Assembly (NCBI RefSeq): GCF_016026235.1
Contig: NZ_CP065613.1
Length of the DNA stretch: 64,000 nt
Direction: 5' to 3' (one strand)
DNA from: Escherichia coli
GTDB taxonomy: Bacteria; Pseudomonadota; Gammaproteobacteria; Enterobacterales; Enterobacteriaceae
In this document: in pieces, positions 45,103 to 46,412 of the stretch
Position numbering within the stretch: the first letter of the stretch is position 1
Layout: every line of letters starts with the position of its first letter
Notes under the pieces: generated by a model
What the model was told of the DNA's origin: nothing
The model's input: the letters and a program-made list of their open reading frames with translations, nothing else
Databases searched by the model: none
Position numbers and translations under genes: made by a program

Positions 45103-45149
45103 ATTAATCTGACCATCATTTTATATAAGACGGCGGTAATGACTCCAAC

Positions 45150-45653
45150 TTACTGATAGTGTTTTATGTTCAGATAATGCCCGATGACCTTGTCATGCAG
45201 CTCCACCGATTTTGAGAACGACAGTGACTTCCGTCCCAGCCTTGCCAGATGTTGTCTCAGATTCAGATTATGTCGCTCAATGCGCTGAGTGTAACGCTTG
45301 CTGATAACGTGCAGCTTTCCCTTCAGGCGTGATTCATACAGCGGCCAGCCATCCGTCATCCATACCACGACCTCAAAGGCCGACAGCAGGCTCAGAAGAC
45401 GCTCCAGTGTGGCCAGAGTGCGTTCACCGAAGACGTGCGCCACAACCGTCCTCCGTATCCTGTCATACGCGTAAAACAGCCAGCGCTGACGTGATTTAGC
45501 ACCGACGTAGCCCCACTGTTCGTCCATTTCAGCGCAGACAATCACATCACTGCCCGGTTGTATGCGCGAGGTTACCGACTGCGGCCTGAGTTTTTTAAGT
45601 GACGTAAAACCGTGTTGAGGCCAACGCCCATAATGCGTGCACTGGCGCGACAT
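45150..45653 (-). CDS. insB: IS1 InsB (167 aa)
   Basis: 167-aa ORF matching IS1 InsB. Confidence 0.93.
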
Positions 45654-45847
45654 CCGACGCCATTCATGGCCATATCAATGATTTTCTGGTGCGTACCGGG
45701 CTGAGAGGCGGTGTAAGTGAACTGTAGTTGCCATGTTTTACGGCAATGAGAGCAGAGATAGCGCTGATGTCCGGCAGTGCTTTTGCCGTTACGCACCACG
45801 CCTTCAGTAGCGGAGCAGGAAGGACATCTGATGGAAATGGAAGCCAC
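45572..45847 (-). CDS. insA: IS1 InsA (91 aa, GTG start)
   Basis: 91-aa ORF with CPSC...C zinc-finger-like N-terminus matching IS1 InsA; overlaps insB as expected for the -1 frameshift arrangement. Confidence 0.93.
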
Positions 45848-46412
45848 GCAAGCACCTTAAAATCACCATCATACACTAAATCAGTAAGTTGGCAGCATTA
45901 CCTAAGACGGCATATTTAAACGCATTATACAATATGGGTTATCTTTCTTTTGTAAATTGTCCAACCCGATACAATAGCTATTTTGTTATTATTTGATGAA
46001 TAGTATCAGTGCGTCATAATTCAAGTTAATAACCTTAAGGGATATCAGTTATATTTAAACTAAATTAAAGTAATGAATAATTTTCTTATAATATAAGCTA
46101 AATTAACAAAATGGCTTCGCATTTAACAATAACCGAATAGAAAACAACCATTTCGACATCAACAATCGCTTACATTCGCTTATATATTGACCACAACTGA
46201 TACATCAGATTATGTGATGACTCGTGCTTAGATCAATTTTTGCAATCATTAGCAAAAAGATTAATAAACCATCTATATCAATTTATCCAACCTATTCTGC
46301 CGTTCAAGAAATCGCCGAACAGTTATTTTTAACAAATTTTTCTCTTCCCATTGACTTTCCCGGACACCTTGTCTGACCTAAGGTGCGCGAAAGCCACTTT
46401 TTCCTTCCTGAG

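Follow-up and report, generated by a model that had tools for sequence, protein, structure and literature searches.

In the Escherichia coli DNA analysed here (one stretch of 64 kb, called the window throughout, to which all coordinates refer), an IS1 element stands between the autotransporter adhesin gene yfaL and its native promoter candidates. Our best explanation, to which we give a probability of roughly 0.62, is a recent IS1 insertion that uncoupled yfaL from these promoters, was close to neutral and left the nrdAB region intact; its structure, the empty site, the recurrence of insertions and the positions of the promoter-like sites are observed, while how transcription is affected and how nearly neutral the event was are inferred. 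The genes concerned are the following:

41350–45102, minus strand: yfaL (ehaC), an intact AIDA-I-family autotransporter adhesin gene of 1250 aa
46304–46447, minus strand: ypaB, an intact 47-aa open reading frame, annotated in other genomes and overlapping the nrdA promoter region
46575–48860, plus strand: nrdA, 761 aa, from the annotation of homologous loci

The IS1 Element

The element can be read directly from the sequence at 45135–45902 (768 bp, IS1F-type, transposase on the minus strand). A first-pass annotation of this DNA had described a 768-bp IS1 at this place with both inverted-repeat ends and insA/insB, and the coordinates as well as the open reading frames confirm it. The outer bases begin with GGTAATGACTCC / GGTAATGACTCCAACTTACTGAT at 45135 and finish with GGCAGCATTACC / ATCAGTAAGTTGGCAGCATTACC at 45902. 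The repeat finder gave terminal inverted repeats with 23-nt arms (87% complementary), and a query with the IS1 inverted repeat, with up to three mismatches allowed, returned only two sites in the 64 kb, where zero were expected by chance. The window holds this single IS1, and its gene order is E. coli-like. A Shigella origin, considered because the insertion was missing from every complete E. coli genome, finds no support in these two features, nor in the closest relative, which is an E. coli. Parts of the element are listed below:

45135–45157, plus strand: IRR, the inverted repeat on the insB' side, adjoining yfaL
45880–45902, minus strand: IRL, the inverted repeat on the insA side, turned towards ypaB and nrdA, with 3 mismatches to IRR
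45572–45847, minus strand: insA, 91 aa with a GTG start, matching the N-terminal part of model NF033558
45590–45596, minus strand: the programmed -1 frameshift motif A6C (AAAAAAC), at position 307 when the element is read in its canonical orientation
45150–45653, minus strand: the insB' frame, in the -1 frame relative to the overlapping insA
45868–45895, minus strand: a promoter-like CTGCCA-16-TATGAT in IRL, reading into insA (consensus scan)

With a simulated -1 shift, the InsAB' fusion (45150–45847, minus strand) is open over 232 aa. The IS1 transposase model NF033558 scored 147.9 bits on InsB' (cutoff 100) and 89 bits on InsA alone, the latter being under the same cutoff of 100 for a protein that covers only part of the model. 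The promoter-like site in IRL lies where we take IS1's own promoter to be expected. Taken together, the element has all the testable defining features of IS1.

The closest described copy used for comparison was IS1F of K-12 MG1655 (NC_000913.3, 4518472–4519239), which has the same length of 768 bp, the same inverted repeats, the GTG start of insA and the A6C motif, and which is identical at 763 of 768 positions (5 differences, 99.35% identity). It resides at a different locus. Its InsAB' is changed by W163* and by three other substitutions, while that of the window can be read through all 232 aa; the K-12 copy is described as almost inactive (PMC12428005). Copies 100% identical to that of the window are present in many E. 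coli genomes. Transposition competence of the window IS1 is suggested by the perfect duplication described below, by its reading frames being open and by the site being empty in the nearest relative.

Target Duplication and Age of the Insertion

Both edges of the element are flanked by the same nine bases:

45126–45134, unstranded: left copy of the target-site duplication, TAAGACGGC, on the yfaL side and abutting IS1
45903–45911, unstranded: right copy, TAAGACGGC, abutting the other IS1 end

This 9-mer occurs exactly twice in the 64-kb window, at the two IS1 edges, and the chance that a random 9-mer would recur exactly at the opposite end is about 4^-9. An empty site with one copy was found in three genomes, namely FDAARGOS_943, K-12 MG1655 and strain 100181, where it reads TTTTATATAAGACGGCATATTT (K-12 allele TTTTCTATAAGACGGCGTATTT). 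Since TAAGACGGC is single at these three empty sites, the duplication in the window is a real target-site duplication. The most informative of the three is the E. coli FDAARGOS_943, the closest complete genome, with 99.9% identity over 17 kb (all others reach at most 98.6%). Its yfaL-nrdA spacer, around the site, shows a single mismatch with the window in 1563 bp and reads TTTTATATAAGACGGCATATTTAAACG, with one 9-mer and without IS1.

A search of 5,426 complete E. coli genomes did not return the exact IS1 junction, which also gave 0 matches in species-representative genomes and 0 in metagenome contigs. As the junction was found in no other genome searched, the insertion, judging from its junctions, is recent, private to its lineage and unrearranged since. 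The first-pass annotation had proposed an IS1 with an intact 9-bp duplication, introduced by simple transposition without later rearrangement, and had suggested comparison with IS-free yfaL-nrdA regions. That comparison upholds both proposals, as TAAGACGGC abuts both ends of the element in the window, and the near-isogenic and the reference empty sites agree in having one copy where the window has two.

Probable Displacement of yfaL from Its Native Promoters

The yfaL product matches the equivalog model NF007285 from end to end (1–1250 of 1250 residues, 2791.6 bits, cutoff 1459), and its C-terminal beta-barrel is recognised by TIGR01414 over residues 807–1250. Between the ATG of yfaL and IS1 there are 32 bp (45103–45134), the distance that had been given before, with the reading frame ending at 45102 and IS1 beginning at 45135. 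Promoter-like sites were scored by their match to consensus out of 12, with a threshold of at least 9 of 12, and a relaxed scan was run on the reconstructed empty site. In the native spacer, all yfaL-strand sites that score at least 9/12 lie upstream of the insertion point, and two of them deserve to be listed:

45929–45956, minus strand: the nearest native yfaL promoter-like site, TTTACA-16-TATTGT, with an adjacent TATAAT; IS1 now lies between it and yfaL
46209–46236, minus strand: the SELEX promoter of yfaL, TTGATC-16-CATAAT, which now stands about 1.1 kb away from the start codon of yfaL

The second of these corresponds, with matching hexamers and spacing, to a constitutive sigma-70 promoter of yfaL that was reported from genomic SELEX and flagged for H-NS (PMC3946193), and the spacer has also been listed as an H-NS-bound "promoter island" (PMC3661553). 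One further promoter-like site of 8 out of 12, seen in the relaxed scan, is split by IS1. The first-pass annotation held that the yfaL promoter was displaced by at least 0.77 kb, which agrees with the position of every candidate of at least 9/12, and of the SELEX promoter, beyond IS1. The apparent placement of all yfaL promoters upstream of the element comes from consensus scans and one in-vitro SELEX study.

From this we propose the following course. An intact IS1F-type IS1 recently entered the place where the AT-rich yfaL-ypaB spacer meets the coding region of yfaL, duplicating TAAGACGGC, so that 777 bp, the entire IS1 included, are now inserted between yfaL and each native promoter candidate. 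With 777 bp in between, transcription of yfaL from the native promoters is expected to be largely lost. IS1 is known from the classical literature to be strongly polar. The element is co-directional with yfaL, with 47 nt between the insB' stop and the yfaL start, and some residual low-level transcription may come from read-through of insA-insB' or from a weak hybrid promoter at IRR; promoters further upstream could also read through insA-insB' into yfaL. Moreover, the interrupting DNA has 53% G+C, set against the H-NS-bound tract, and breaking that tract could relieve silencing instead of deepening it. On balance, an uncoupling or reduction of yfaL expression with nearly neutral consequences appears probable.

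The expectation of near-neutrality follows from yfaL being dispensable, and this gene is indeed dispensable. In FDAARGOS_943, yfaL is disrupted by an IS5-family element, many natural isolates have IS1 within yfaL or have lost its 5' end by deletion, and in several lineages with IS1 at the site, deletions run from IS1 into yfaL and its 5' end is gone. Viewed in this way, the insertion in the window looks like the beginning of a decay of yfaL through IS elements, such as is known from other strains.

An alternative, to which we give a minor share, is that the insertion had no functional effect at all, with yfaL being already transcriptionally silent in this lineage under the relevant conditions. 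The phenotypes of K-12 yfaL were studied with a constitutive promoter put before the gene (PMC3764049), and a preprint classes yfaL among the adhesins that are cryptic in the laboratory; from these two points it follows that silencing of yfaL may change little, and the interruption or truncation of the gene in many natural isolates, the closest relative included, fits equally. However, the full-length reading frame and its end-to-end equivalog match suggest that yfaL was under selection until recently, and its reported regulation by GadE and GadX (PMC4918353) implies that its expression depends on conditions.

A Recurrent IS1 Target near yfaL

When the IS1 with 500-bp flanks was used as the query, 26 genomes covered at least 80% of it. 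Among the complete E. coli genomes, the junction region on the ypaB side was common to 24 and that on the yfaL side to 18, and reading of the junctions showed that the IS1 copies near the site in other genomes come from events different from that of the window. A synthetic query with IS1 reversed added 10 more genomes with a reverse-oriented IS1 in the region, among which S931B has it at the same 9 bp. Altogether, seven independent IS1 insertions, that of the window included, fall inside 24 bp, six of them forward (IRR beside yfaL, as in the window) and one reverse:

Window: IS1F-type; duplication TAAGACGGC (9 bp); forward; no deletion into yfaL
E308 lineage (about 20 genomes): a different isoform with 95% identity to that of the window; duplication TAAGACGG (8 bp); forward; deletion in some members
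JMF1: right junction displaced by 1 bp; forward; deletion into yfaL
GDSC2227PM: IS1A-type; right junction 9 bp nearer to yfaL; forward; deletion into yfaL
23CRST009: IS1A-type; GCGTATTT, 7 bp the other way (opposite to the direction of GDSC2227PM); forward; no deletion
UTME-9, -10, -12 and -14: IS1B-type; right junction a further 7 bp on; forward; deletion into yfaL
S931B: IS1X4-type; AAGATGGCG; reverse; no deletion into yfaL

In E308, 23CRST009, JMF1, GDSC2227PM, the UTME-9 group and S931B, IS1 thus lies at most 24 bp from the position in the window, with duplications of 8 or 9 bp, but the isoforms are 91–96% identical to the window copy, and both the junctions and the yfaL alleles are other ones. 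Both duplication lengths are documented for IS1 (PMC12428005). At least 11 further IS1 insertions were found inside the 5' region of yfaL. Two micro-hotspots are present there, one at codons 16–18 (SCU-118, forward; GDSC2BY4G, reverse) and one at about 44842–44849 (YZMc3-1 and EC3, reverse; FJ_Ec_21, forward), and single events also occur deeper within the gene. Among the genomes examined, the rest of the spacer on the ypaB and nrdA side (approximately 480 bp) held no IS1 insertion, although it is the most AT-rich part (26–31% G+C). IS1 is known to prefer AT-rich target DNA. In the same genomes, the IS1-associated deletions all extend into yfaL and none towards nrdA. Judging from these independent events, the site is a preferred target of IS1 that has been struck separately in other E. 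coli lineages.

A strict orientation bias was considered as a sign of selection and was set aside, since S931B is reversed and a ratio of 6 to 1 gives a two-sided binomial value of about 0.13, which is suggestive at most. A hairpin in the empty-site leader that would hide the yfaL start was likewise considered, whose stem joins -69 to -50 to the bases around the AUG and whose loop contains the hotspot (-23.1 kcal/mol, z = -3.2); it was rejected as a conserved structure, because four natural alleles carry one-sided changes that break pairs, without compensatory ones. A search for Rfam families in 44500–47000 returned none at E <= 1.

Could IS1 Activate yfaL?

Somewhat less probable than the absence of any effect is the opposite reading, in which IS1 turns yfaL on through a hybrid promoter, co-directional read-through or broken H-NS silencing, and the recurrence of insertions reflects selection for adhesin expression. 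The two junctions offer these candidate promoters:

45118–45148, minus strand: a weak candidate hybrid promoter directed to yfaL, TTGGAG (in IRR) -17- TATAAA or -19- TAAAAT, 8/12
45889–45916, plus strand: a candidate hybrid promoter directed to nrdA, TTGGCA (in IRL) -16- CATATT (in the flank), 9/12

An outward or hybrid IS1 promoter for yfaL had been suggested in the first-pass annotation. A candidate -35/-10 combination exists, with -10-like TATAAA and TAAAAT at 17 and 19 bp from TTGGAG; the outward hexamer TTGGAG of IRR matches only 3/6, the combination of 8/12 is under the standard scan threshold, and the better candidate of 9/12 faces nrdA. Because the yfaL-side end is IRR with this hexamer and this score, transcription of yfaL driven by IS1 is weakly supported. 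A hybrid promoter common to the independent insertions was also rejected, as the junction positions and the flanking -10 alleles differ between events.

There are precedents for the activation of genes by IS1. In ST131, IS1 is found in a likewise position just upstream of a surface-adhesin gene or another gene (afaA, osmB and ugd); its inverted repeats carry an outward -35, transcripts of afaA rise by about 7 log2-fold, those of osmB fall and those of ugd are unchanged, with the outcome set by the spacing from the -35 of IS1 to the -10 (PMC8764528). A strong hybrid promoter forms at afaA, whereas the yfaL-facing end in the window, with its 8/12, is nearer to the outcomes at osmB and ugd. The silent bgl operon is a further precedent, as an upstream IS1 or IS5 activates it (PMC11043490), with the element entering, likewise, AT-rich DNA bound by H-NS in front of a silent gene. 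The bgl insertions stand before an intact promoter and lift its silencing, while the IS1 of the window lies between the promoter candidates and yfaL. The H-NS binding of the spacer and the orientation of six of the seven insertions within 24 bp, which is that of the window, would also suit activation. Against this, the independent insertions stand at varied distances from the -10 elements, the flanking alleles differ (TATAGA in E308 and in the K-12 type), the orientation is not exclusive given the reversed S931B, and the later 5' deletions together with the many interruptions of yfaL by IS1 fit decay and not selection for expression.

A case pointing the other way is IS1D at gfc, which has a silencing effect. 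In K-12 this copy resides in the gfcA promoter region (PMC12428005), again a resident IS1 at the promoter of a cell-surface operon, although at a different locus. Since IS1 in the promoter regions of surface genes (afa, gfcA) and insertion at the H-NS-bound bgl are documented, the event in the window is of an already familiar kind, involving a familiar element and a site at which other strains, too, have received IS1. Our literature search found no paper linking IS1 and yfaL.

To hypothesize further, the 24-bp stretch just before the yfaL start codon might be more than a passive hotspot, because it took at least seven hits (six of them co-oriented), because the neighbouring, still more AT-rich, approximately 480 bp were spared and because deletions run only into yfaL. 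Selection may act here, by re-wiring or switching of the adhesin through IS1 or by protection of nrdAB control, or a specific target structure where an H-NS filament ends may steer both the position and the orientation of IS1; we consider this improbable, more so than activation. The apparent hotspot, tight and orientation-skewed, beside a spared nrdAB-proximal spacer is only a mildly new observation.

The nrdA Side of the Insertion

The distance from the end of IS1 is 672 bp to the nrdA ATG, where about 670 bp had been stated before, and about 400 bp to the ypaB stop. Two control elements of nrdA lie beyond the insertion:

46413–46421, plus strand: an intact DnaA box of consensus sequence, TTATCCACA, ahead of nrdA
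46483–46496, plus strand: an NrdR-box-like palindrome, CCCTATATATAGTG, intact, with 1 mismatch to the pattern

The NrdR-box consensus is said to go back to Rodionov and Gelfand 2005. In addition, the sequence CCGGACACCTTGTCTG, for which a HusR site has been reported (PMC12844172), is intact at approximately 46361–46376. All three sequences are essentially identical to those of the empty-site relative FDAARGOS_943, and the claim of the first-pass annotation that the nrdA control elements remain intact downstream of IS1 holds for the DnaA and NrdR boxes that it was made for. The same annotation omitted ypaB, which lies between IS1 and nrdA and holds the nrdA promoter (PMC6242692).

A main effect on nrdAB, by way of the IRL-flank hybrid promoter or of an altered H-NS tract entering the ypaB/nrdA control region, is very unlikely: the TTGGCA-16-CATATT directed from IRL to nrdA, the H-NS flag of the spacer, and the constraint suggested by the lack of IS1 in the remaining approximately 480 bp and of nrdA-ward deletions in the genomes examined would speak for it, but the 9/12 site is a consensus match only, the distances to nrdA and ypaB are considerable, the DnaA, NrdR and HusR-site sequences are unchanged, and about 20 genomes of the E308 lineage evidently tolerate IS1 at the same place.

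Meaning of the Insertion

The insertion in the window matters little beyond the annotation of the strain, where it accounts for the probable uncoupling of yfaL from the promoters; it is a further case of the well-known decay or re-wiring, by IS elements, of genes for cryptic E. coli adhesins. Of modest further use is that the 5' end of yfaL, together with the first approximately 40 bases upstream of it, is a recurrent IS1 target in unrelated E. coli, with the nrdAB-proximal spacer spared. The yfaL hotspot could be a natural test bed for the choice of targets by IS1 near H-NS-bound DNA.

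Clustering of IS1 insertions at the yfaL start

Comparison of junctions showed that the 24-bp stretch immediately upstream of the ATG of yfaL, the autotransporter adhesin gene, has received seven independent IS1 insertions in unrelated E. coli, with target-site duplications of 8 or 9 bp. Five IS1 isoforms are represented among these insertions, and six of the seven share one orientation. The interior of yfaL holds two additional micro-hotspots, one at codons 16-18 and the other about 85 codons into the gene, both of which consist of independent insertions of different IS1 isoforms in either orientation.

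45117-45134 and 45912-45917 (45117-45140 in empty-site coordinates, i.e., in the spacer without IS1): IS1 cluster, loci L001, L008, L009, L010, L011 and L016
45048-45056 and 44842-44849: yfaL-internal IS1 micro-hotspots, loci L006, L020, L025, L017, L019 and L026

A 13-nt inverted repeat has its arms (45086-45098 and 45936-45948) on either side of the yfaL start codon and of the IS1 hotspot; in the empty site they are separated by 60 nt. The yfaL leader RNA of the empty site can adopt a fold of -23.1 kcal/mol (z = -3.2) in which the stem contains the AUG; allele comparison gave no compensatory changes in this hairpin.

The resident IS1 copy and its outward end

Compared with the window copy (45135-45902), InsAB' of the K-12 IS1F (L023, 1973-2740) is cut short by the stop W163* and has three substitutions as well; the window element seems to represent the IS1F type in its intact, parental form. 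A promoter-like hybrid reads outward from IS1 in the direction of ypaB and nrdA, and its transcription would run antisense to that from the promoters native to yfaL.

45889-45916, + strand: candidate hybrid promoter, TTGGCA (in IRL, the IS1 inverted repeat at the insA end), 16-nt spacing, CATATT (in the flank)

Neighbouring loci

The window strain's closest relative, FDAARGOS_943, has an empty IS1 site, and its yfaL is instead split about 440 bp into the gene by an IS5-family element (L015, 22675-23519). In both genomes yfaP directly follows rcsC (window 28013-28286), whereas in K-12 atoSC-atoDAEB separates the two genes; the ato locus therefore appears to be missing from the window lineage. 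The minus strand at 30718-35337 holds a single ORF of 1539 aa, the FDAARGOS_943 counterpart of which is an alpha-2-macroglobulin family (yfaS-type) gene; this ORF looks intact, in contrast to K-12, where yfaS is a split pseudogene.

The spared spacer towards nrdA

A search of 5,426 complete E. coli genomes in both orientations found zero IS1 insertions in the remaining yfaL-ypaB spacer (45918-46402), even though AT content is highest there (26-31% G+C). The 500 bp towards yfaL hold at least 14 independent IS1 events. Where a deletion accompanies IS1, it extends into yfaL in every case and in none towards nrdA. Such a pattern may stem from purifying selection that acts on the control of nrdAB, or from H-NS protecting the DNA.
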